A DNA stretch of 64,000 nt. Origin: a virus. Taxonomy: Duplodnaviria; Caudoviricetes. The position numbers were made by a program, and so were the translations under genes. The notes under the pieces are model-generated. The model was not told the origin of the DNA. It ran no database searches and saw nothing but the letters and a program-made list of their open reading frames with translations. Shown in pieces: positions 2,463 through 24,608 of this stretch. Positions within the stretch are counted from its first letter, which is position 1, and each line of letters opens with the position of its first letter. The DNA lies in IMG/VR virus record IMGVR_UViG_3300021514_000002, positions 64,001-128,000 of that record; one strand, given 5' to 3'.

Positions 2463-2672
2463 AAGTAATCCTATTTTATTGTAATTTCCCTTACCACCTT
2501 ATCGTGGCTAGTTAATACCATGTTAGCATATTTGATAATCTCTTCTTCTGCAGATTTTATATCATTATATCTGCCCATTATTTGTGACCACTTACCAAAA
2601 ATCCAAATGCCTTCAAATGACTGAATACAATAGGAACCATTATTTTTAATAACACGATATTTAAGTTTCATT

Positions 2673-2855
2673 TTATTTTGCCTTTGATATCTTTGTTGCA
2701 GCAACAATAATGCTTGCTACAAACGAAATAAGAAGAGTAAGAACAAATGGATACGTCCACCAATTTTCAAATACATGGCTATCTATTAATAGATAGCCGA
2801 ACCAAAAACATAACCACAAAGTAACAAATGGCAATAGCCACCATATATATTTCAT
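2673..2855 (-). CDS. Small two-helix membrane protein
   Basis: Two hydrophobic stretches. Confidence 0.6.
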   Translation of the reverse strand: MKYIWWLLPFVTLWLCFWFGYLLIDSHVFENWWTYPFVLTLLISFVASIIVAATKISKAK

Positions 2856-2857
2856 AA

Positions 2858-3328
2858 TTAATCCTTCAAATATTCATACGCAGTGAAATACTTTTCAAGA
2901 CGTTCAAAGTCTTTTTTACGCAAACCTTTCATACGCAAGATACGAGAATTGTGATCTAGATCTTCTCTTTTAACTAAACGTGCGTCAGTATTCATTGCAA
3001 GGATTTTAATATATTCCATATAAGGCATACCATCTTCGTGTGTCAGAGCTTTAACTGCGGCAAGAACGCGTTCAGAAAATCCCATAGCTCTAAGATTTTC
3101 AATAGTATAATCAGTATCTTCAATTAAATCATGAAGTACTGCTATTGTCATAAGTTCTTCATCATCCATGCCCACTTGAAACATTACATATAAGCAATGT
3201 AATACGTAATATTTTCCGCCTTTATCTTTGCGACCTTCAAATGCCTTTGATACTAATGTGATTGCTTTGTCTAACATGTTAATTTCCTTGAGTTTTTGTA
3301 TTATAACACAATTAATTATATTTTGCAA
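2858..3328 (-). CDS. HD-domain (p)ppGpp hydrolase-like protein (Mesh1/SpoT HD family)
   Basis: RKDKGGKYYVLHC, AVLHDLIEDT, VKxxDxxHN-like motifs. Confidence 0.82.
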   Translation of the reverse strand: MQNIINCVIIQKLKEINMLDKAITLVSKAFEGRKDKGGKYYVLHCLYVMFQVGMDDEELMTIAVLHDLIEDTDYTIENLRAMGFSERVLAAVKALTHEDGMPYMEYIKILAMNTDARLVKREDLDHNSRILRMKGLRKKDFERLEKYFTAYEYLKD

Positions 3329-3350: not shown

Positions 3351-4763
3351 TTACCATTTCATTAAATAAGATAAGAATGTACGAACCCCAAATCCAGTTC
3401 CACCTGATTGGTTTGTACCAAACGGCTTATCAGCAAAAGCAGGTCCAGCAATATCTAAATGTAAATATTTTTTCTTTCCCTCTTCGGTCAATGCATTTGT
3501 CAAGAACAATCCCGCCTTATGACATCCTTGGTATTTTGTTCCCATGTTTGACAAGTCTGCAAGTTTGTCATCAACACCATCGAGCATAAATTTATGGAAT
3601 TCCGCGTTACAGAAAATTTCACCTTCTTTAAGTCCTACGGTTTTGATTTTATCTTTCATTTCATCTGCGAATCCGACCATGCCTGCCGCTTCTGCACCAA
3701 ATGCCGCCAATGCAGCACCTGTCAAGGTAGCGAACGTATACATTTCATCAAAATCTGGATTTTCTTCTTCAGCCAATACCATGTTGTCAAATAATACTAG
3801 GCGTCCTTCTGCATCGGTATTTTTAACATGAACGGTTTTCTTGTTCTTCATAGTAAGAACATCCCCAGGTTTATACGAGTGTTCATTAATCATATTTTCT
3901 GCTAAAGCAATATAGGCAGTTACATAATATGGTGAGCCGATTTCCACAAGACCTTTCATGATTCCCAAAACAGTCATAGCACCTGCTTTATCGCATTTCA
4001 TATTAACCATGCTGTCGGTTGGTTTAATAGAAAGCCCACCACTATCGTATGTCAATCCTTTACCAATTAATACCACATGTTTTGAAAAATCGCTTCTTCG
4101 TAATCCTTGCGGCGTGTATGTTAATTTTACGGTCATGGCAGGATGCGGGGACGAACGATTGACGGCAAGGTGTCCGTTCATTTCTAACTTTGATAATTCT
4201 GATTCGTCATATTTGGTGACTGTGATATTATCTACATCTGCAAACATATCAATAATTGTGTTAGTTATCGTAACAGAAGTCATATCTTCGGCGGTGCCAT
4301 TAACCATATCACGCGTAAAACATTGCGCGTTTGCACGGTTAGTGGCTCTGTGTATACATTGTTCTATCACTTCATCGTGAGCATCTTTTAGAACATTAGG
4401 ATAAAGGATAATTTTATTAAGAATGTTACTTTTTGGTTCTGATTTGTACTTTTGAAAACTATAATCACCTAAAACCAAACCTTCTAAAAACTCTTGACAA
4501 TTTGCAGGTACTTCAATATCTACAGATTCAATATTAAGATTATTAAGATGTTGCATTAGGTTGAAACCAGATTCCCGCCAATCATCTTGCAGCATATCTT
4601 CTTTTTGTAAAACGTAAACATAGCCAGCTGTGGCATCGGTATGTATTTTGAAACTTTCGCCAAGCATTACAATACTTGGAATTGTTTTGACTTTTTCTTT
4701 AGTAAGAAATTTTACGCCTAATTTTGATTTTTTTTGGTCATCTATCGCTAATATTAATTTCAT
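3351..4763 (-). CDS. Leucyl aminopeptidase (peptidase M17)
   Basis: GKGLTYDSGG, MKCDKAGA, NTDAEGRL, TLTGA, HLDIAG motifs. Confidence 0.95.
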   Translation of the reverse strand: MKLILAIDDQKKSKLGVKFLTKEKVKTIPSIVMLGESFKIHTDATAGYVYVLQKEDMLQDDWRESGFNLMQHLNNLNIESVDIEVPANCQEFLEGLVLGDYSFQKYKSEPKSNILNKIILYPNVLKDAHDEVIEQCIHRATNRANAQCFTRDMVNGTAEDMTSVTITNTIIDMFADVDNITVTKYDESELSKLEMNGHLAVNRSSPHPAMTVKLTYTPQGLRRSDFSKHVVLIGKGLTYDSGGLSIKPTDSMVNMKCDKAGAMTVLGIMKGLVEIGSPYYVTAYIALAENMINEHSYKPGDVLTMKNKKTVHVKNTDAEGRLVLFDNMVLAEEENPDFDEMYTFATLTGAALAAFGAEAAGMVGFADEMKDKIKTVGLKEGEIFCNAEFHKFMLDGVDDKLADLSNMGTKYQGCHKAGLFLTNALTEEGKKKYLHLDIAGPAFADKPFGTNQSGGTGFGVRTFLSYLMKW

Positions 4764-4805
4764 CTTACATCCTTTATATTGTATTTTCTCGCGTTACTAC
4801 ACTTC

Positions 4806-4834
4806 AGTATACAGGATTTAAAAAGGAATGTCAA
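4806..4834 (-). promoter_or_regulatory. sigma70-type promoter for the aminopeptidase block
   Basis: TTGACA-N17-TATACT on the minus strand. Confidence 0.7.
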
Positions 4835-4840
4835 TAATTT

Positions 4841-4916
4841 TGGTGGGAACGGTGGGAGTTGAACCCACGCCTTTCTGATTAAGAGTCAGATATACTAGCC
4901 ACTATACGACGTTCCC
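4841..4916 (-). tRNA. tRNA-Lys(CTT)
   Basis: GGGAACG/CGTTCCC-A-CCA; TCTGA-CT CTT AA-TCAGA. Confidence 0.95.
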
Positions 4917-4922
4917 GTTATT

Positions 4923-4998
4923 TGGTAGTCCCGCACGGAATCGAACCGTGTGTAGTCTTCTTTGTAAGAGAAGTGCGTCGCCATTCAGCATCGGGACT
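4923..4998 (-). tRNA. tRNA-Val(TAC)
   Basis: AGTCCCG/CGGGACT-A-CCA; CTTCT-CT TAC AA-AGAAG; TTCGATT T loop. Confidence 0.93.
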
Positions 4999-5179
4999 AG
5001 TGTTTATTTTTTCTGGCTATCATTAAAGACTAAAGGTTCACCTTCATCTTTTATAACGGCTTCAAGTAATCGTTTTGCTTCTTCAAAATATTCCATGGAT
5101 GATTCATCAACGCCATCTGCAGGACAAAAATAAATATTCATTTTCTTTTTCCGTTGTTTCATTTTCGTTCTCCGTTGTT

Positions 5180-5270
5180 TGGCTCCCTCGGGTGGATTCG
5201 AACCACCATAACGCTTTCAAGTATACGCTTGTTTAACAGACAAGTCTCTTACCAGTTAGAGTACAAGGGA
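5180..5270 (-). tRNA. tRNA-Asn(GTT) with 20-nt variable region
   Basis: TCCCTTG/CGAGGGA-G-CCA; CTTGT-CT GTT AA-ACAAG; variable region CGTATACTTGAAAGCGTTAT. Confidence 0.88.
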
Positions 5271-5277
5271 ATAAATT

Positions 5278-5353
5278 TGGCTGGCACGGTGGGATTCGAA
5301 CCCACATACACTTGTTTAACAGACAAGCCTCCTACCGGATAGAGCACACGCCA
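5278..5353 (-). tRNA. tRNA-Asn(GTT)
   Basis: TGGCGTG/CGTGCCA-G-CCA; same anticodon arm as the neighbouring Asn; 5-nt variable loop. Confidence 0.93.
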
Positions 5354-5469
5354 ATAACTTTTTACTTATCAAACCATAGATGTAAAATCCTTTCAACTTC
5401 ATCTAACAATTCGTTCATTTCTTTAATTAATTCATCTTTACTTTTCATTTCTTTTCCTATCTTTCAATT

Positions 5470-5557
5470 TGGTGCCAGCAGTAGGATTCGAACCTACAGT
5501 GAGTTTTCACCCGCCGGATTACAAAACCGGTGCAATACCTGATTATGCGATACTGGC
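5470..5557 (-). tRNA. tRNA-Thr(TGT) with long variable arm
   Basis: GCCAGTA/TGCTGGC-A-CCA; CCGGT-TT TGT AA-TCCGG with a U31-U39 mismatch; variable arm GTGA-AAAC-TCAC. Confidence 0.82.
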
Positions 5558-5718
5558 AATTGTACTACTTTGCGACATTTCAGCCCTCGTCAAATATAGC
5601 ACGTATTCGTTTACCTAAAGCAGCAGCCTGTTCTCTTACATGTTTAGAACTTTCAAGCTGTTCAGGTGTAATTTCTTTTTGTTCAAATTCTTTGGCACCT
5701 TCACCAACAAATTTTAAA

Positions 5719-6057
5719 TTAGGAAACGCTTCTTTCATGTTCATGTTTTTCACCTATATAATATTTTAATCTTTTAATAACTTCTTCGCTGTATTCTTTA
5801 CCTTTAGTATCTAATAAAGACATTTCAATTTTTAAAAGAATTGTTTTAATATTCCAGTTACTGATTAAACCGTTTTCATAAAAATCGATCCAATCAATAA
5901 CCATATTTTGTTTTTCAAATTCATCAATAATAAAATCAAGGGGTAAACCATGTGTTTCTACTATTTTAAAAACACCTTTTATTACTTGTTTATTATCTGA
6001 TGTTATCCCTGAAGTGTCAAGGTGTTTCTTTTTCCTACCGCGTTTGGCGATTTCATT
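5719..6057 (-). CDS. Small protein with an AlaRS-like segment; start codon uncertain
   Basis: Frame open from 6057 to 5719 reads GVFKIVETHGLPLDFIIDEFEKQNMVIDWIDF, resembling the F-x-L-YDTxGFPxD...VDxxGF segment of alanyl-tRNA synthetase; first in-frame ATG only at 5904. Confidence 0.5.
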   Translation of the reverse strand, partial: NEIAKRGRKKKHLDTSGITSDNKQVIKGVFKIVETHGLPLDFIIDEFEKQNMVIDWIDFYENGLISNWNIKTILLKIEMSLLDTKGKEYSEEVIKRLKYYIGEKHEHERSVS

Positions 6058-6060
6058 TCA

Positions 6061-6276
6061 TTATCCCCCGTCTTTAGATTCTTCAATAAGGTTTAAATGT
6101 TTTCTTATCCATCGCATGAATAATATTGCTTTGTCTTCACTATTAAATGCTGCAGTGCCTGCATCACTTATTGGTACAGGAAATTCAAATCCACATTCAG
6201 TAACGTACCATAATTCGCCTTCTTTATAAAATAAAAACTTTACTACTTTACCTTTAACCATATCTTTAATAGACAT
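6061..6276 (-). CDS. Hypothetical protein
   Basis: ORF with RBS between tRNA genes. Confidence 0.7.
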   Translation of the reverse strand: MSIKDMVKGKVVKFLFYKEGELWYVTECGFEFPVPISDAGTAAFNSEDKAILFMRWIRKHLNLIEESKDGG

Positions 6277-6294
6277 TTTCTTCTTCCTAGTTTG

Positions 6295-6367
6295 TGGAGC
6301 AGACGGGATTTGAACCCGCCGCAGAAAATCTTGCCAGAATTTCTCGTCCCCTTAGACATACTGCCCC
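6295..6367 (-). tRNA. tRNA-Ala(GGC), no encoded CCA
   Basis: GGGGCAG/CTGCTCC-A with G3-U70; loop CT GGC AA; followed by CAA instead of CCA. Confidence 0.87.
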
Positions 6368-6376
6368 GTTGTTGTT

Positions 6377-6451
6377 TGGTAGCCCCGTCAAGACTCGAAC
6401 TTGACTCTAACGGTTATCAGCCGTTTGTAATCACCCATATACTACGGGGCT
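6377..6451 (-). tRNA. tRNA-Ile(GAT)
   Basis: AGCCCCG/CGGGGCT-A-CCA; AACGG-CT GAT AA-CCGTT. Confidence 0.94.
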
Positions 6452-6517
6452 ATAGCCGTCTTTTACTGCTGTCATACAGCACCTACAAGTAGGAGGTCGA
6501 TTACAACGGTCGCCTAT
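6452..6517 (-). ncRNA. Structured RNA element abutting the 5' end of tRNA-Ile
   Basis: Closing stems ATAG/CTAT and CCGT/ACGG enclose hairpins CCTA-CTTG-TAGG and TGCTGT-ATG-ACAGCA. Confidence 0.4.
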
Positions 6518-6615
6518 TTTAATATAATCTTTATTCTTCCACTCAGTCCGGTAACTAGTATGGATGTGGGAGGCTCATTCAACCTGTGTACTATATTAAA
6601 ATTCTTTTATACTAA

Positions 6616-6939
6616 TTACTTCTTATCTGGATACTGTGCATCCAGTTCATCAATGTAAGCGTAAGGACTTTGCCCTGGCTTAAATATTTTGATATTCTTA
6701 AAACCATTATCTTCGGTAATAAGACTATCTTTTTCATCAATGGAACCACGATGTTTTGCACCATATTTTCCTTCAACTTTACCAGTCGCGGGATTTAAAT
6801 CACCCCATTTAATATGAGGATCTCCCATTGGTTCTACTGCATACGTTTTTCCTGTTCTGAAAGAAACAATCATATGTCTTCCAGTATCTTCGGTTTTTTC
6901 AAAAAACTTCTTTCTAAATTCTGGTGACAACATTGTCAT
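6616..6939 (-). CDS. Hypothetical protein (start trimmed to MTMLSPEF)
   Basis: The longer ORF call runs through tRNA-Lys; RBS AGGAG precedes the ATG at 6939. Confidence 0.7.
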   Translation of the reverse strand: MTMLSPEFRKKFFEKTEDTGRHMIVSFRTGKTYAVEPMGDPHIKWGDLNPATGKVEGKYGAKHRGSIDEKDSLITEDNGFKNIKIFKPGQSPYAYIDELDAQYPDKK

Positions 6940-6959
6940 TCTCCTTTTTATTATAAATT

Positions 6960-7035
6960 TGGTGGACTGCCCCAGCCACGATCTGGGAACCTCTCGATTA
7001 AAAGTCGAGTACTCTGCCAATTGAGTTAGCAGTCC
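6960..7035 (-). tRNA. tRNA-Lys(TTT) with atypical T loop
   Basis: GGACTGC/GCAGTCC-A-CCA; CTCGA-CT TTT AA-TCGAG; T arm CCCAG-ATCGTGG-CTGGG. Confidence 0.88.
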
Positions 7036-7040
7036 TAATC

Positions 7041-7664
7041 TTAATATTCTATTCCCCATTCATTTAATGTCGTTTTGACTCTGTTATAATTGTTACCCTT
7101 TGCCGCCAATCCAAGCTTTAATAAACATTGTCTAATATTACCAGTTTCTATATACGTTTTAACTATCTGCTCTGCCGTAATAGGTTCTTTAGTTACTTTC
7201 TTTTTATTTCTACCACGCCAAGTAAGTGTTAAACTATGACAATTGGGACATAACCCTTCAAGGTTCCCCCTTTCATTATTTTGATTATCCCCATCTTTAT
7301 GTTCTAGTTCAAGAACTAATGGTTGATTTAACCATCTGTCCAGTTTACATCTATTACATTTATGTTCCTGTTCAAGAAAAACTCGCTTACGAATCCTTCC
7401 AAACTTCAAACTACTAAAATCTTCCGCTAGTAGTTTAGTTTCCCAAGTCTTCTTTCGTTTTTCTATCATATTTTCTATTACTATTGGATCTAATAATGGG
7501 GTCTTCAATCTCCCCTCCTGCATAGCACTCTTAACGCTATTAGAAATTTTTCTTTTTGTTTCGGCAGTCTTGATTCTACTGTTTGCACATCCACGGGAAC
7601 AAAACTTCCCACTTCCGAACGTACCATCATGCTCTTTATTGCATTTTATATTTTTACATTTCAT
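7041..7664 (-). CDS. HNH homing endonuclease
   Basis: CNRC...LELEHKDGDNQNNERGNLEGLCPNCHS; inserted between tRNAs; late promoter TATAAATA at 7684-7691. Confidence 0.88.
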   Translation of the reverse strand: MKCKNIKCNKEHDGTFGSGKFCSRGCANSRIKTAETKRKISNSVKSAMQEGRLKTPLLDPIVIENMIEKRKKTWETKLLAEDFSSLKFGRIRKRVFLEQEHKCNRCKLDRWLNQPLVLELEHKDGDNQNNERGNLEGLCPNCHSLTLTWRGRNKKKVTKEPITAEQIVKTYIETGNIRQCLLKLGLAAKGNNYNRVKTTLNEWGIEY

Positions 7665-7720
7665 ATTCGTACCCCTTTTAACTTATTTATATCAATAGTT
7701 AAAAAGTGTGCGATTAAAAT

Positions 7721-7794
7721 TGGTGGAGCTACAGGGAATCGAACCCTGGTCTTCGCGGTGCAAGCGCAACGTAATCCCGTTATACTACAGCCCC
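7721..7794 (-). tRNA. tRNA-Ala(TGC)
   Basis: GGGGCTG/TAGCTCC-A-CCA with G3-U70; loop CT TGC AC. Confidence 0.95.
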
Positions 7795-7798
7795 AAAA

Positions 7799-7877
7799 TG
7801 TAGTCCCTATCGCTGACGTACTTCACATACGCTTAGGATGATTACCATCGTCCCAGTTATGATAGGATTTACCTACA
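7799..7877 (-). ncRNA. Structured three-way-junction RNA between tRNA-Lys and tRNA-Ala
   Basis: TGTAG/CTACA and TCCTATC/GATAGGG stems enclose GATG-GTAAT-CATC and GCGTA-TGTGAAG-TACGT hairpins. Confidence 0.45.
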
Positions 7878-7934
7878 CAAACTAATCTACTTGTTAAAGA
7901 ACAAATACACCATCAAGGGTATATTTTAAAAACT

Positions 7935-8020
7935 TGGTGGGGCCGCAGGGATTCGAACCCTGAATGCGTATTCCGCGCCGGATTAAAAGTCCGGTATCCT
8001 AGCCGTTAGATGACAGCCCC
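7935..8020 (-). tRNA. tRNA-Lys(TTT) with long variable arm
   Basis: GGGGCTG/CGGCCCC-A-CCA; CCGGA-CT TTT AA-TCCGG; 15-nt variable region with GCG-GAATA-CGC hairpin. Confidence 0.9.
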
Positions 8021-8027
8021 ATAAATC

Positions 8028-8642
8028 TTAAACTAATCTTTTGAATAATGCATCGTTACCGTTACATTTTTCTTTAAGTCGATCAATCCATTTTCTATTC
8101 TTAATCTTAAACATTCTAACAATTTTGTTTTTCTTGTTGTGATACTTACATACCACCCCTTCAAACGTCATATCTTCTAATGTTCCATTTTTAATAGAAG
8201 TAACTAAATCTTCTGTTAACACACCTTTGTATAAAACTTTGGGTATACCTACATCTTCAAATAATTCTATGAAGTGTAACGGTTCAACCATTCCACGTTT
8301 ATACACATTGACATCAATCAATGTCACTTGGTGTTCTTCGTTCATATCATGCGAGCCAGCAAATGAGCTCTCACCATGAAACTCAAAAAATACTACTACA
8401 CGTTCCCACTTCTTATTAGAAAATATTTCAGCTAATCGTTCCTGATGTTTTTCTAATATTATATCAACCGCTTCACCCAACATAGGATGTTTATTATCAA
8501 TCAGTTGATTTCTTGAACCAAATTTATAAAACCCTTTCTTCTTTGACCATTCTGCTCTTATATTAGAACCGTCAAGTTTATCAAACACTACTACTTTTGT
8601 TCTTTCTAACTTTGTACTTATTGATGGATATGATTTCATCAT
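8028..8642 (-). CDS. ATP-dependent RNA ligase family nucleotidyltransferase (standalone adenylation domain)
   Basis: Motif I DKLDGSN, FGSRN, FFEFHG, LIDV, motif IV FEGVVCK, motif V FKIK. Confidence 0.82.
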   Translation of the reverse strand: MMKSYPSISTKLERTKVVVFDKLDGSNIRAEWSKKKGFYKFGSRNQLIDNKHPMLGEAVDIILEKHQERLAEIFSNKKWERVVVFFEFHGESSFAGSHDMNEEHQVTLIDVNVYKRGMVEPLHFIELFEDVGIPKVLYKGVLTEDLVTSIKNGTLEDMTFEGVVCKYHNKKNKIVRMFKIKNRKWIDRLKEKCNGNDALFKRLV

Positions 8643-8667
8643 AAACCCCTTGTTTTTTGCGGGGCAT

Positions 8668-8700
8668 AAAAAAAGCCCCTTACTTTCGCTTGGGGCTTTT
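8668..8700 (-). terminator. Intrinsic terminator (attenuator 3:4 hairpin)
   Basis: AAAAGCCCC-AAGCGAAAGTAA-GGGGC followed by 7 T on the minus strand. Confidence 0.85.
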
Positions 8701-8722
8701 TTGAATTCTTTGGAAAATGTTT

Positions 8723-8824
8723 TTAAATAACTTTCTTTTCCTCAGTCAAAACCCCACGTTGCAGATTGGCATTAATAGCCACCGCATTCGTTTTAATTGT
8801 ATTGGTTTTGATTGTAACAAACAT
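8723..8824 (-). CDS. Attenuator leader peptide MFVTIKTNTIKTNAVAINANLQRGVLTEEKKVI
   Basis: 33-codon ORF (not in the supplied track) with AGGA RBS, upstream of the terminator; codons 3-20 encode only V/T/I/K/N/A; 1:2, 2:3 and 3:4 pairings present. Confidence 0.8.
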   Translation of the reverse strand: MFVTIKTNTIKTNAVAINANLQRGVLTEEKKVI

Positions 8825-8867
8825 TTTAATTTTTCCTAAAATTTCTAATTTCGTTTAAGTTATACAG

Positions 8868-8896
8868 ACTATATATCATCGTGTTCTTAATGTCAA
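8868..8896 (-). promoter_or_regulatory. sigma70-type promoter of the leader/RNA ligase/tRNA operon
   Basis: TTGACA-N17-TATAGT. Confidence 0.8.
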
Positions 8897-8913
8897 GCAT
8901 TTTCTGCAAATAT

Positions 8914-9138
8914 TTATTTTTTTGTCTGTATTCTTATTAATGCGGTCATTGCCTTGCTCAATTCTTCTTGTACGCCCTGCATATTATTTTGCTCTAATGC
9001 ATTTTTTAACGTTCTAAGGTTGCTTAATACCATATCAATTACAAGTGATTCTTTAGATCTTTTTTTACCGTAATCATCACCATATCCAGGCAATCCTTCT
9101 GTAATACCAGCAAGTTCCTTTAATCTTCCATTGTCCAT
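8914..9138 (-). CDS. Hypothetical late protein
   Basis: TATAAATA at 9163-9170 and GGAG RBS upstream. Confidence 0.7.
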   Translation of the reverse strand: MDNGRLKELAGITEGLPGYGDDYGKKRSKESLVIDMVLSNLRTLKNALEQNNMQGVQEELSKAMTALIRIQTKK

Positions 9139-9230
9139 ATCTAACTCCTTAATAGTTAATACTATTTATAAGGACAATAAAAAAGAGCACGAAAATGGGT
9201 TCTGTGGCATAAATTACAGTATATTGCTTA

Positions 9231-9491
9231 TTATATTTGTGTTTCTTTATAGGCGGTTAATCGTGCCATGCCCGTTTCTTTTGTTTCTTGTTTTGGCCAG
9301 TACATACATAGAGCATCTTTAACATTTTCGGGTAACCGTTCGTTTGGTTTTACAAAAATGAGAAATTCGTCATATTTACAATTCTCGGCGGCATTTGCTT
9401 CATCGTAAAATACCCCTTCACACATCCAAGTATCGTTAACTAATACACCTATGAGCCAAACACCTTCTTTTGTTTCCATATTTGTCACCAT
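9231..9491 (-). CDS. Hypothetical protein
   Basis: ORF in a minus-strand run. Confidence 0.6.
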   Translation of the reverse strand: MVTNMETKEGVWLIGVLVNDTWMCEGVFYDEANAAENCKYDEFLIFVKPNERLPENVKDALCMYWPKQETKETGMARLTAYKETQI

Positions 9492-9852
9492 TTTTCCATG
9501 ATTTCGTCTATTTTAGATACCATATCACTATTTTACTTAAAAGTTATTCTATTTGAATCTTCGGTGCTAAAATATTTAACATTGAGCACTGCATCATTAA
9601 ATAACGCGGCTGCTTCAACACATCTGGCTTTTTTGCGTTTCTTATCAACATAACAAATGAATACATGTTGTATATTATTATATGTAAAAAAATCACCAAG
9701 CTTCATCTTCGGCCATATCTTCGGCATCTTTCTAAGGGTATATTCTATATTATGGATTCAATTTTCTTGGAAATTGAATCCATAATATATTCTTTGTCGC
9801 TATCTAAAACATTGGATATGACTATAGTTAATTCTTTACGTTCATCCATGAT

Positions 9853-12093
9853 TTATACCCAATTAGCAAGAATTTCATCTACTTTAGAAGCCATCCCTAC
9901 ATCAAAGATGGTATCATATTCTTTGCCCTCTTGACGTTCATAGTCAATGGAATAGCCTCGTGCTTCGGCGTGTAAACGAAGTAGATCAAACATGTTAGGT
10001 TTATCAACCAACATGGATTCAATAGATTTTGCCATTAAAATAATACTTCCAGCTTTATTTTCCACGTTTGAATTGCGAAAAGAGCTTAATGAGACATCTG
10101 CCCAAATTATTTGATTTGTTTCTAAATCTAAAATCAATGGGATATTATACCTCGTATCACCATCAATATCAAATTTGTGCTTAACTGTAGTAGGTTCAAA
10201 TACTTTACCACTATTAACCTTATCGCGTCCCATAACACCTGCAAAACATTCAAAAGTATTAAATCCTTGACCAGTATATGAAATAACATTCATTACAACA
10301 TATCGTATATGATTACGACGCGCAGTGTCAATATCAATATCAATAAACTCTGCTGCGCCATTAGGTGCAGACTGAATATCGCCAGAATGTACGCCGCCAA
10401 CATCAGATAAGCGCGTATAAGATAACTGGCCTTTGTAGTTCCAATTAGCATCATAAGATACTGCGCTTAAATCAACATCAACACGATCATCTTTATTTTC
10501 TTTCCAATATAAGAACATTCTTGTTGCATTATTCTTTGCTAATGGTATATGAGAACCACGGGCAACCGTAACTAAACTTTTGCTTGCATTTCTTTGCACC
10601 AATGGCACTAAGTAACCTTTTAAATCTTTGTTAATATAAATATTACCCAAATCTTCAAGTTTAGCAAAGCGTTGTAATAATTCATTAGTGATTGTATTGA
10701 CGACATTGATTGCAAAATCCGCATCAATTGTATCACGTTCATCTTTAATAACTTGGATCTTCGCCAAGCTACCTTTAGGCATGAAGTAACGCTCGCCTGA
10801 ATTAATAGAACGATACTTAAAATGCGAAGACAATGTTAACAACATTGGCGTAGGTATTTTTTCTACCAATTCATTAAAAGTCGTTAACACGGGTACAGGT
10901 GCATCAAACGCACGCAACATCCAATCCATGCGTCGTGCAAACTCGCCGGGTCTGGTTGCCAAAATCGCAATCAAGTCCCGCTCAGCGATCCATGCATCGG
11001 AACCAGTAAGTGATTTAATAGTAACAACAAACTTTTCAACCTTGCTATTAAATGTTTCAATTGTGTCAGCACGATTTCTTAGCGTGTCACATGCATTGAA
11101 AGCATTTGGATATTTCTTGGCATACTTACCAATATGTAAAACTTCTGCAAGACGAATCCAACGCATTTTATAGCGAAGCATATCTTCTTCTGGACTATTT
11201 ACATTGTCCAGTAACCACATAATAACCCTGCGTTCTTTATTTGATAAACGGAAACGTGTAACTTCTTTCAAAGATACATCACCACCAGATAACTGAACAG
11301 CAAGACGCAATACGTCTGTTGCCGTTTTGATATAATCAATCAATATGTATGATGCTATGGTGGTGTAGTCACTATGTGAACCGTTCGGATCGTATGTATA
11401 ATCTACCGCAAGCCCAGCAATCAATGCTACGTTTTCTTTCATGGTAATCATATTTGATACACATGTAAACATGCTTGGATCTTCTTTGACTAACTTCGTA
11501 ATAATATCACGATTATCTTCTGAAATAGAAGACTTAGCTTCTAATAGATTCGTAAAGATTTGTTTAACATCTTCTACATTAATTAATTTAATAATTTTTA
11601 AAGGGGTAATATCTTCCAATACTGGACGATCATTTTCATCCGTAGTTTCATCTACTTGGCATTGACAAATTGGGCAGGCACCAAAATCATCCATATTAAA
11701 TAAACGCGTATCAATAACATGACCACATGAAAGTGGTTTAATGTCTTCTGGTACGCAATCAATTAAATTGGTCACAAATCCAATAATACGTCTGAAAAAA
11801 TATTCATCATCATCGGGAATATCCTGTGGGAAATTCTTAAATAATGGACGATACTTTACATGATCGCCAACCATTTTGGATAAGTTTTCGACTAACATTG
11901 TATGGAAATTTCTGAAATCGGTTTCAGTTAAGGTACGGATGGCACGAATAACATTACCATCTAGCGTATACCCAAGTTGAGATATATCTAATAAAAGATC
12001 GCGAATATGAACTGCTGGTGTTTTCCATGTTGATTCAGTAACTACGACAGACTGTTTGTATTGTAAAGCAATGGCATTTTGTAACACGTTCAT
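9853..12093 (-). CDS. Large protein with a helical N-terminal region and a C-terminal TerD-like domain
   Basis: C-terminal RVDVDLSAV...HSGDIQSAPNGAAEFIDID TerD-type acidic metal-binding motifs; internal CxxC. Confidence 0.7.
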   Translation of the reverse strand: MNVLQNAIALQYKQSVVVTESTWKTPAVHIRDLLLDISQLGYTLDGNVIRAIRTLTETDFRNFHTMLVENLSKMVGDHVKYRPLFKNFPQDIPDDDEYFFRRIIGFVTNLIDCVPEDIKPLSCGHVIDTRLFNMDDFGACPICQCQVDETTDENDRPVLEDITPLKIIKLINVEDVKQIFTNLLEAKSSISEDNRDIITKLVKEDPSMFTCVSNMITMKENVALIAGLAVDYTYDPNGSHSDYTTIASYILIDYIKTATDVLRLAVQLSGGDVSLKEVTRFRLSNKERRVIMWLLDNVNSPEEDMLRYKMRWIRLAEVLHIGKYAKKYPNAFNACDTLRNRADTIETFNSKVEKFVVTIKSLTGSDAWIAERDLIAILATRPGEFARRMDWMLRAFDAPVPVLTTFNELVEKIPTPMLLTLSSHFKYRSINSGERYFMPKGSLAKIQVIKDERDTIDADFAINVVNTITNELLQRFAKLEDLGNIYINKDLKGYLVPLVQRNASKSLVTVARGSHIPLAKNNATRMFLYWKENKDDRVDVDLSAVSYDANWNYKGQLSYTRLSDVGGVHSGDIQSAPNGAAEFIDIDIDTARRNHIRYVVMNVISYTGQGFNTFECFAGVMGRDKVNSGKVFEPTTVKHKFDIDGDTRYNIPLILDLETNQIIWADVSLSSFRNSNVENKAGSIILMAKSIESMLVDKPNMFDLLRLHAEARGYSIDYERQEGKEYDTIFDVGMASKVDEILANWV

Positions 12094-23123: not shown

Positions 23124-24608
23124 TTACGTTGTGGCTTCCACCTGTTCACGCACTTCTTCAAACGTATATTCTTTAGTAATTTTACCATTTAAGAATACAG
23201 TTTTAAGTTGTGGATTAGGATAAACACCTTCTCTGTCAGTAAAGTAATTACCATTGACAGCATTTTTATATAACATCAATCGTCCGCGTTTACTCTTCTT
23301 ATTGGTTACGCCATCAGAAGTAATAGGATCTTTATAAACGTCGACATCTTCGCCGTCAATCTTCGCCCATGATGCTTTCATTGCAAATTGATTGGTATCG
23401 CGATCAACTTGTTGAAGCAATCCACCACCTTGACCCAAGACTACATTGTCAGAACTAAATCCATACCCAACTAATGTTGATAAGATATCTTCAATACTTT
23501 CAATATTAATACCATCACCTTGTAAAATACGAACATTATTCAGTACTTTATAACCCTTACTATTAACAGTGCTACCATAAGTAGAATCAATTAACATTGC
23601 AATTTTTGAAACAACTTCTGCAGGGTTTCCACTGTCTGGACGGATAACCAATTGTGAACCACAAGCCAAAACTTCTTCTTTTAGTTCCTTGCCCCACAAT
23701 TCACCAACAGCGTTATAGATGTCATATGAATCAGAGACCACTGAAATAATAGGATATTTTCCACCGAACTGTTTAAGCATATTACGATACGCAGCCAATT
23801 CGCCTTTTTTCATCCAAGTAGTAATAGAACTATGTTCAGCCGCTGGCACAGACCATGCTAACATGTTCCGTGTGTTGTAGTATTTCATGGCATAAATGAT
23901 ACCAGTAATAGTATCTGTACCCTTGAAATTAAGTAAGTGTGCAGAACCGCCGATACCAGCACTTTCTTTTGAACTTACGCCACGTGCGCCAAAGTCATGC
24001 AGTTTAAAATCTAAACCAGCCATAGCTGCTTCATCTGCCGTTTCTTCCATGTATTGACGGATAATCTGTTTAGAAGTCCAACTATTTGACGCAACAGTCA
24101 TAGGATACCAAACGGCTCTATGAATTGAAGTTTCAATATAAGAAGTCAACCATGGCACATTATCATCAGTATTTTCAATTGTAACAACTGCATTTTTGAA
24201 TGGTAGCACTGTACCTTCTGCGACTGCTTTTACTTCAACTGGTAAGTAACCATCTAAGTTATTGACGATATAGTCCCAACCTACGCGGTTGAAAGGCTCG
24301 CCATGTAAGAAGAAGAAAACTTCTGCTTGGTCGACCATTTCTTTGGTGACGCGCTTGGCTAGATATTTCTTTAGATAAATTTGTAAACCGTAGAAAACAG
24401 TACGTTCATATTTTCCACCGCGCGATTCAATATATGAAAACACACGTGTTGTGTTTGGAGGGTATTGTAACCAGTGACTGGCTTTATAAGAATCTACATC
24501 CAGTAAAATATTTTCTTCTGGATCAAAAGAATCAAAATCTAATTCGGGTGGGTTTGTTAGCCATTCTTGTGGAAAGCTAATTGGTTGTTCTAATGTTTTA
24601 ATATTCAT
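23124..24608 (-). CDS. nadV: Nicotinamide phosphoribosyltransferase
   Basis: DSYKASH, LHDFGARG, VPAAEHS, VSDSYD, IRPDSG, QGDGI. Confidence 0.96.
   Translation of the reverse strand: MNIKTLEQPISFPQEWLTNPPELDFDSFDPEENILLDVDSYKASHWLQYPPNTTRVFSYIESRGGKYERTVFYGLQIYLKKYLAKRVTKEMVDQAEVFFFLHGEPFNRVGWDYIVNNLDGYLPVEVKAVAEGTVLPFKNAVVTIENTDDNVPWLTSYIETSIHRAVWYPMTVASNSWTSKQIIRQYMEETADEAAMAGLDFKLHDFGARGVSSKESAGIGGSAHLLNFKGTDTITGIIYAMKYYNTRNMLAWSVPAAEHSSITTWMKKGELAAYRNMLKQFGGKYPIISVVSDSYDIYNAVGELWGKELKEEVLACGSQLVIRPDSGNPAEVVSKIAMLIDSTYGSTVNSKGYKVLNNVRILQGDGINIESIEDILSTLVGYGFSSDNVVLGQGGGLLQQVDRDTNQFAMKASWAKIDGEDVDVYKDPITSDGVTNKKSKRGRLMLYKNAVNGNYFTDREGVYPNPQLKTVFLNGKITKEYTFEEVREQVEATT

Follow-up and report, generated by a model that had tools for sequence, protein, structure and literature searches.

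A candidate leader-peptide attenuator ahead of an RNA ligase gene and a tRNA array in a jumbo phage

Known attenuators and the phage locus

Leader-peptide attenuation is known to act on amino-acid biosynthesis genes and on a few synthetase or resistance genes. In the Escherichia coli thrL, ilvGMEDA and ilvBN leaders, a short open reading frame (ORF) contains regulatory codons for more than one amino acid, a segment in its last codons (segment 2) mimics the 3′ arm of the terminator, and the intrinsic terminator lies just ahead of the first gene. The same design is seen on the minus strand (positions 8896 to 4841) of a window of 64,000 nucleotides (nt), which comprises bases 64001-128000 of one 363,531-bp contig (IMG/VR record IMGVR_UViG_3300021514_000002; 36% GC). 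The contig is that of a jumbo phage, and the metagenome sources are hydrothermal vents, cold seeps and marine sediments. At this locus a 33-codon leader ORF and a terminator precede a gene for an RNA ligase and an array of ten tRNA genes, in a layout like that of the E. coli thr leader (locus L021). The element is probably a thr/ilv-type ribosome-mediated transcription attenuator that controls read-through into the ligase gene and the tRNA array.

Several features set the phage leaders apart from thrL and ilv. They govern tRNA genes and an RNA ligase rather than amino-acid biosynthesis enzymes, and they sample six, fourteen or twenty isotypes, whereas the bacterial leaders sample one to three. 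The element is phage-borne, its segments 2 and 3 have the stop codon between them, with a fixed distance of 24-28 nt from stop to terminator stem, and an extra layer of pairings (4:5 and 5:6) is predicted to gate the ribosome-binding site (RBS) of the first gene. The pheST (pheM) attenuator and T-box riboswitches resemble the phage element in coupling the expression of a translation component to the state of the cognate tRNA. The pheM leader senses one isotype and controls a synthetase, whereas the product of the phage operon belongs to the class of molecules that would be sensed. T-boxes bind uncharged tRNA directly, without translation; an Rfam scan of positions 4000-10000 (E <= 1) gave only tRNAs and chance-level matches, with no T-box model and no leader family among them.

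Phage-borne tRNA genes, in some cases with an RNA ligase, are familiar from phage T4, in which Pnk and Rnl1 act against PrrC, and from the arrays of phage T5, which compensate for the loss of host tRNAs. A plausible purpose of phage tRNA arrays and ligases is to replace or repair the tRNA pool in the course of infection. To our knowledge, no leader-peptide attenuator is known for T4 repair or for the T5 arrays, and none appears in the searched literature either. The full-text literature search likewise turned up no account of phage or bacterial tRNA genes under leader-peptide attenuation, in agreement with an earlier note on this DNA, which knew of no described phage attenuator of this kind. 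The mechanism class is classic; its application to tRNA arrays and the division of codon sets between leaders are, as far as can be told, new.

Architecture, conservation and covariation of the leader

All elements of the leader lie on the minus strand, and all were found where the earlier note had placed them. A sigma-70-type promoter that agrees with 11 of 12 consensus positions (8868..8896; TTGACA at 8896-8891, a 17-nt spacer and TATAGT at 8873-8868) is followed by the Shine-Dalgarno sequence AGGA (8834..8837), 9 nt upstream of the leader ATG. The leader ORF (8723..8824; coding 8726-8824) has 33 codons and a stop. Its codons 3-20 (8765..8818) form the control region, a run of 18 consecutive Val, Thr, Ile, Lys, Asn or Ala codons. 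Segment 1, TCAAAACC (8804..8811), has segment 2, GGGGTTTTGA (8746..8755), as its partner in the minimum-energy fold and with RNAalifold, and between them lies an inner hairpin (8761..8785), the GC-rich stem of which encodes a conserved Ala-Val-Ala. Segment 2 has two alternative partners, namely segment 1 or the 5′ arm of the terminator. The leader stop codon (8723..8725) separates segments 2 and 3. The intrinsic terminator (segments 3 and 4; 8668..8702) consists of A6-GCCCC, a 12-nt loop and GGGGC-T7.

Downstream of the terminator, segment 5, GCCCC (8665-8661), pairs with GGGG (8649-8646) in the minimum-energy fold, and the resulting hairpin (8646..8665) masks the ligase RBS, AAGGGG (8651-8646). 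Segment 5 has an alternative partner in the terminator arm GGGGC. The ligase gene (8028..8642, ATG at 8642, 204 amino acids) is the first gene past the attenuator, and with merely 25 nt between the T-tract and its ATG it has no room for a promoter of its own. Another ATG follows directly on the T-tract (TTTTTTT-ATG-CCCC, 8665-8667) and is kept in close relatives. Only in L025 does this ATG share the reading frame of the ligase, and the gene caller chose it there; a role in the RNA structure is more likely for it than one as a start codon.

By profile and motif, the first gene is a putative RNA ligase. The protein matches PF09414 with 35.2 bits (cut-off 27) and phrog_548, RNA ligase, with E = 3e-13, and the KLDG near its N-terminus corresponds to nucleotidyl-transferase motif I (KxDG). 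A PDB sequence search gave no match of the ligase to any solved structure.

The arrangement is conserved. In 15 distinct loci, promoter, Shine-Dalgarno sequence, leader ORF, terminator and ligase gene occur in identical order, with ligase identities of 57-96%. The relatives have a TTGAC-type promoter at the equivalent position and purine-rich Shine-Dalgarno-like motifs ahead of the leader start. Every relative has a terminator, with a GC stem and a T-tract, 22-37 nt ahead of the ligase ATG, and the stems and loops differ. A profile search of DNA found a 16th leader in L233, directly before tRNA-Val/Thr/Thr genes and with the ligase gene 2 kb farther on, an arrangement in which the leader accompanies the tRNA array and not the ligase. 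The start codon and a Shine-Dalgarno-like motif are kept in all 16 loci.

Ligase homologues at about 50% identity (at most 53% in the viral-contig scan, and most metagenome matches) have no leader. In distant jumbo phages with a ligase of about 50% identity (L001-L020, at about 2550-3000), the start of the ligase gene overlaps or abuts the stop codon of a conserved Cys-rich upstream gene, which suggests that translational coupling may replace the leader there. The earlier proposal that the attenuator gates a ligase and tRNA operon therefore holds as an arrangement in 15 loci, and L233 and the leaderless distant ligases make the link to the ligase a non-essential one.

At the protein level, a profile built from the 16 leader peptides retrieved 44 cluster representatives from 1.84 billion proteins. 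These clusters, defined at 50% identity, come mostly from vent, seep and marine-sediment metagenomes, and nearly all representatives have 29-38 residues and the same composition. The search for the leader in related phages that the earlier note had proposed thus yielded 16 loci and 44 protein-cluster representatives. No PHROGs family covers the leader peptides, and blastn against a GenBank phage collection found no relative of the locus. A DNA pattern, TCAAAACC-N40-65-GGGGTTTTG, was unspecific, with at least 120 chance loci, and nhmmer showed no true leader among the matches listed.

The leader RNA folds more stably than shuffled sequences do (z = -3.6). In the minimum-energy fold, the 1:2 pairing (TCAAAACC with GGTTTTGA) encloses the inner hairpin and is followed by the terminator and then by the RBS hairpin. 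RNAalifold independently recovers the 1:2 pairing and the inner hairpin, in which a GC pair becomes CG in three sequences and AU in one. In a transcript cut short at 8691, segment 2 takes the terminator 5′ arm as its partner instead. The sequences of these two segments differ between clades and remain complementary: GGGG/CCCC, GAGG/CCTC, GTCAGG/CCTGAC, GTCGGGTTTTGA/TCAAAACCCGAC and GTCGGGCTTC/GAAGCCCGAC.

Matched 2:3 duplexes have a mean of -15.7 kcal/mol, compared with -11.7 kcal/mol for mismatched ones, and 0 of 20,000 permutations were as good; such tests ignore relatedness, and show that the segments change together between clades. The 2:3 covariation signal is as strong as that of the terminator itself. 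For the pairings around the RBS, the same comparison gave 0 of 20,000 permutations for 4:5 and 33 of 20,000 for 5:6, and both pairings are weak in L230, L231 and L235. The segment-1 partners are other or unclear in L231 and L233. Of the pairings proposed earlier, 2:3 and 3:4 are thus backed by covariation and 1:2 stands as a predicted fold that is almost invariant; the proposed masking of the RBS is supported by the covariation of 4:5 and 5:6 in the family.

The position of the control codons is consistent with these pairings. The restricted codons end about four codons ahead of segment 2, which is the limit at which a stalled ribosome would leave segment 2 free, and this geometry fits a kinetic switch. 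Equilibrium folding with a ribosome footprint, a check proposed in the earlier note, gives the terminator a probability of 0.999 at every ribosome position. The calculation is equally insensitive for the thr attenuator of E. coli (L021), a proven case, and footprint folding is therefore uninformative for or against attenuation.

Leader codons and tRNA arrays

The tRNA-Lys gene that opens the array begins 8 nt past the ligase stop codon. The array (4841..8020, minus strand) contains ten tRNA genes with an HNH endonuclease gene and interspersed small ORFs, all in one direction: tRNA-Lys-UUU (7935-8020), tRNA-Ala-UGC (7721-7794), the HNH endonuclease (7041-7664), a further tRNA-Lys-UUU (6960-7035), tRNA-Ile-GAU (6377-6451), tRNA-Ala-GGC (6294-6367), tRNA-Thr-UGU (5470-5557), two copies of tRNA-Asn-GUU (5278-5353 and 5180-5270), tRNA-Val-UAC (4923-4998) and tRNA-Lys-CUU (4841-4916). 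With Lys three times, Ala and Asn twice each, and Ile, Thr and Val once, the isotypes are exactly those of codons 3-20 of the leader, as the earlier note had claimed for the window. Downstream arrays of the relatives carry the same six isotypes. By wobble rules, the leader would sample Val-GAC, Val-UAC, Thr-UGU, Thr-GGU, Thr-CGU, Ile-GAU, Lys-UUU, Asn-GUU, Ala-UGC and Ala-GGC, which we infer to be nearly every isoacceptor of the six-isotype group. Three of the array tRNAs are 86-91 nt long (Asn 5180-5270, Thr 5470-5557 and Lys 7935-8020). Asn, Thr and Lys tRNAs normally lack a long variable arm, and these three may carry insertions or introns.

A codon run of this kind could in principle be a chance low-complexity, AT-rich ORF near a terminator. 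In the six frames of the 363.5-kb genome, an 18-codon run of Thr, Lys, Val, Ile, Asn and Ala codons is found twice, as the longest (a tie), and the other run is antisense to a gene. The run in the window contains a 15-nt tandem duplication (TIKTN), without which it is worth about a 13-codon run, and the genome holds eight such runs of at least 13 codons. The decisive evidence is therefore comparative. That evidence refutes a chance origin, which is left with next to no probability: the leader is conserved in 16 loci and 44 clusters, its pairings covary, and two further leaders match their arrays.

In the control regions of the family, 282 of 295 residues (95.6%) belong to the six-residue set; the share in long ORFs of the phage is 39.7%, and in the leader tails, which lie past segment 2 and are not conserved, it is 27%. 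Insertions and deletions between the leader start and segment 2 are multiples of 3, and the distance from the stop codon to the terminator stem falls within its 24-28 nt in 15 of the 15 loci measured, with the stop mostly 21 nt past segment 2. One-base codon differences between aligned leaders comprise 40 synonymous changes, 41 replacements within the set and 13 out of it, while random mutation would be expected to give 24%, 32% and 42%, respectively. Replacements within the set thus look nearly neutral and those out of the set look selected against, a pattern that would be expected of regulatory codons and not of a folded protein. The Ile codon ATA is used for none of the 37 Ile residues in this family, compared with 30% of Ile codons genome-wide.

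The phage genome as a whole encodes 45 tRNAs and a transfer-messenger RNA (tmRNA), and its tRNAs cover all 20 amino acids. The leader codons hence match the local array and not the whole tRNA set of the phage, which limits the earlier claim that they match the phage's own set. The tRNAs form two groups without any common isotype. Genome positions 54795-72020 hold tRNAs for Thr, Val, Ala, Lys, Asn and Ile only, and positions 2172-23552 hold only Met/CAU, Arg, Gly, Trp, Cys, Leu, Gln, Ser, Asp, Phe, His, Glu, Tyr and Pro tRNAs. Elsewhere in the genome are two CUA-anticodon tRNAs (252271-252344 and 252952-253023), which are amber suppressors labelled Pyl by ARAGORN, and the tmRNA gene (233835-234219).

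The second array includes four tRNAs with a CAU anticodon. One of them may be an AUA reader, since ARAGORN labels tRNA-Ile2 as Met, but this could not be proven. In blastn searches against E. coli, one CAU tRNA is similar to a family of tRNA-Met genes of which a genome has a median of 4 copies, a number that would presumably suit the initiator tRNA, and two have no match. The tRNA at genome 3277-3353 has C4-G69 and C5-G68, which we take to be TilS determinants; its identity as tRNA-Ile2 is unproven. The same region contains permuted tRNA halves (genome 10860-10945, minus strand; 3′ half, 11-nt spacer, 5′ half), and the halves at 10945-10860, once joined, are called by ARAGORN as tRNA-Lys(UUU).

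When the genome was scanned generically for terminators with an upstream complement to their 5′ arm, the second-best match lay at the head of this other array, 39.9 kb before the window. The element found there (leader 2; L236:2880-3135, genome about 23886-24230, minus strand) has tandem promoters, an ORF, a terminator and an antiterminator. Its ORF has 48 codons (L236:2945-3091, minus strand), and codons 38-41 are perfectly complementary to the terminator that follows. The first 36 residues include all 14 isotypes of the array, and the only residues from the six-residue set are two Ile, both encoded by ATA. Of the 171,898 windows of 35 codons that have no stop in any of the six frames scanned, just two, which overlap and lie on the leader 2 ORF, have at most two six-set residues together with all 14 other residue types.

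The leader 2 design is kept in eight homologous peptides and in two DNA loci (L238 and L239), in which the arrays carry Pro, Gln, Glu, Gly, Asp, His, Phe, Arg, Tyr and Trp tRNAs, a stray Thr tRNA and a CUA suppressor. The CUA tRNA lies within the array in L239. Five of the six Ile codons in this family, as read from the sequences, are ATA.

A third leader was found in L228, which has a ligase of 65% identity, no leader before the ligase and a single mixed array in the order Glu, Glu, Asp, ligase, Gln, Tyr, Asn, Ala, Ile, Val, Lys, His, Phe. The leader (L228:3422-3589, plus strand; element 3360-3650) has 56 codons and the same terminator-antiterminator layout, and the terminator 5′ arm is complementary to leader codons at about 46-49. 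Its first 45 residues include all 20 amino acids, as do 0.8% of proteome windows. The stop codon lies 27-30 nt from the terminator in leaders 2 and 3.

Three kinds of array thus pair with three leader compositions. The comparison of leader codons with tRNA sets, also proposed in the earlier note, therefore holds across the relatives of the first leader and extends to the complementary and 20-amino-acid leaders, which mirror other arrays. A generic scan for a terminator, an antiterminator, a short ORF and a nearby tRNA, in tRNA-bearing loci and in the whole genome, found only these three leader families. A conserved structured RNA of about 130 nt with a shared GGTTGAAATTCC motif lies between a conserved promoter and the first tRNA of the array (L236:2591-2736, minus strand; L238:8395-8540; L239:8408-8555; L228:3675-3830). 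It has no Rfam match, and 8 of its 24 predicted pairs show compensatory changes in four sequences.

The additional leaders bear on two other explanations. The attenuator might report general translation capacity or the coupling of transcription to translation, with the codon set as a by-product of an A-rich, unstructured leader and a GC hairpin. The run in the first leader is indeed A-rich, its Ala-Val-Ala core coincides with the conserved hairpin stem, and equilibrium folds do not separate ribosome positions. However, leader 2 is not A-rich, and the 14 residues it draws on, Trp, Cys, His and Tyr among them, complement the six-residue set; the two leader families split over the use of ATA; in-set replacements are nearly neutral in the first family and out-of-set ones selected against; and the 20-residue leader accompanies a mixed array. 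A sensor of general capacity therefore seems improbable.

It is still less probable that the units of promoter, ORF and terminator are small independent genes for a micropeptide or small RNA, which happen to lie beside tRNA arrays and which the terminator merely ends. Gene callers do annotate the ORFs, and leader 2 has its own downstream promoter and an invariant peptide core, as a free-standing gene might. For such genes, however, covariation of segment 2 with the terminator arm would be purposeless. The peptide of the first leader varies freely within its residue set and has an unconserved tail, the distance from stop to terminator is fixed, and the ligase gene would be left without a promoter of its own.

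Proposed control of tRNA supply

In an attenuator of the thr/ilv type, host RNA polymerase would transcribe the leader from the strong host-type promoter as a ribosome translates the 33-codon ORF. A ribosome that moves smoothly would reach the stop codon between segment 2 and the terminator and block the 2:3 pairing, and transcription would end at about 8668. A ribosome that stalls within codons 3-20 or thereabouts would leave segment 2 free to pair with the terminator 5′ arm, which would allow the polymerase to read through. In the read-through RNA, the freed 3′ arm would pair with GCCCC (8665-8661) and thereby expose the ligase RBS. The quantity sensed would be the supply of charged tRNA for the six isotypes. 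The many different codons in the leader would make it behave as an OR gate over these isotypes. As the products of the operon are the sensed tRNAs, such an arrangement would amount to negative-feedback control of tRNA supply.

A number of observations weigh against this reading or limit it. Leader translation, stalling, the response and the feedback loop are deduced from the architecture, with indirect support for translation from the reading frame, the stop spacing and the substitution pattern. The 1:2 pairing is almost invariant and hence gives no covariation signal (p about 0.11). Without a ribosome, 2:3 is thermodynamically favoured over 1:2, which makes the untranslated default unclear. 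Some control positions have Phe, Met or Leu, and the leader does not always mirror stray tRNAs (Phe in L229, Tyr in L230 and Thr in L239). The GC-rich stem of the inner hairpin accounts for most of the Ala and Val codons, and since the Ala-Val-Ala core coincides with that stem, RNA-structure constraint could explain part of the six-isotype match. The invariance of the leader 2 core at the peptide level hints at a further constraint on that leader. The permuted tRNA-Lys, if functional, would possibly be a Lys gene within the 14-isotype array.

Promoter-like sites downstream of the leaders are a further point of the same kind. An internal promoter-like site, TTGACA-17-GATAAT (5992..6020, minus strand), and a TATAAATA motif at 7691-7684 (minus strand) may drive the distal tRNAs without the attenuator, and a conserved promoter follows the leader 2 terminator. 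On account of these sites, the attenuators may add to a basal level instead of acting as on/off gates. The earlier note had raised a promoter at 7684 as a caveat; the motif is present there, and its use for the distal tRNAs is a possibility.

Taking the three leaders together, the balance of evidence leans somewhat towards an isotype-partitioned tRNA controller, in which each array is gated by its own leader, a shortfall of any tRNA induces the array that supplies it, and the new tRNAs shut it off. The leader codons would sample nearly every isoacceptor of the respective array, namely six isotypes, fourteen together with the AUA-reading Ile, or all twenty. A shortfall could arise from a mismatch of codon usage with the host, from infection-induced decay of tRNAs or from defence nucleases.

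The last of these sources, which is the trigger that the earlier note proposed, has an explanation of its own, in which the same attenuator serves as a host-defence alarm. Anticodon nucleases (PrrC, RloC, PARIS and colicin-like enzymes) would cut tRNAs and cause the ribosome to stall, and the repair ligase and replacement tRNAs would then be produced. The RNA ligase is the first gene past the attenuator in 15 loci, and a repair role is plausible for a gene in that place. The leader is rich in Lys and Asn codons, and genes resembling CCA-adding enzymes (PF01743) lie near the locus in relatives. Lys and Asn tRNAs are known nuclease targets. However, leaders for 14 and 20 isotypes exceed the target range of any known nuclease, L233 has a leader that heads tRNAs without a ligase, more distant phages have the ligase without a leader, and plain supply-and-demand feedback on tRNA fits equally well. 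A dedicated alarm is therefore unlikely, and the breadth of the other leaders argues for general control of supply.

Two neighbouring genes are also kept near the locus in relatives. A homologue of M17 leucyl aminopeptidase (PF00883, E = 5.5e-87) lies just past the tRNA array (3351-4763, minus strand), and a 746-amino-acid protein with a weak prokaryotic RING-finger match is encoded upstream (9853-12093, minus strand).

The locus suggests that a textbook mechanism regulates tRNA genes themselves, and does so in a virus. Why large phages carry many tRNAs, and when they make them, is an unsettled question. The leaders provide an annotation handle on a widespread family of unannotated small ORFs (44 clusters), and as compact natural sensors of defined tRNA sets they could potentially be used as reporters. 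If the proposed control is true, the phage would measure decoding capacity by codon class and top up only what is short.

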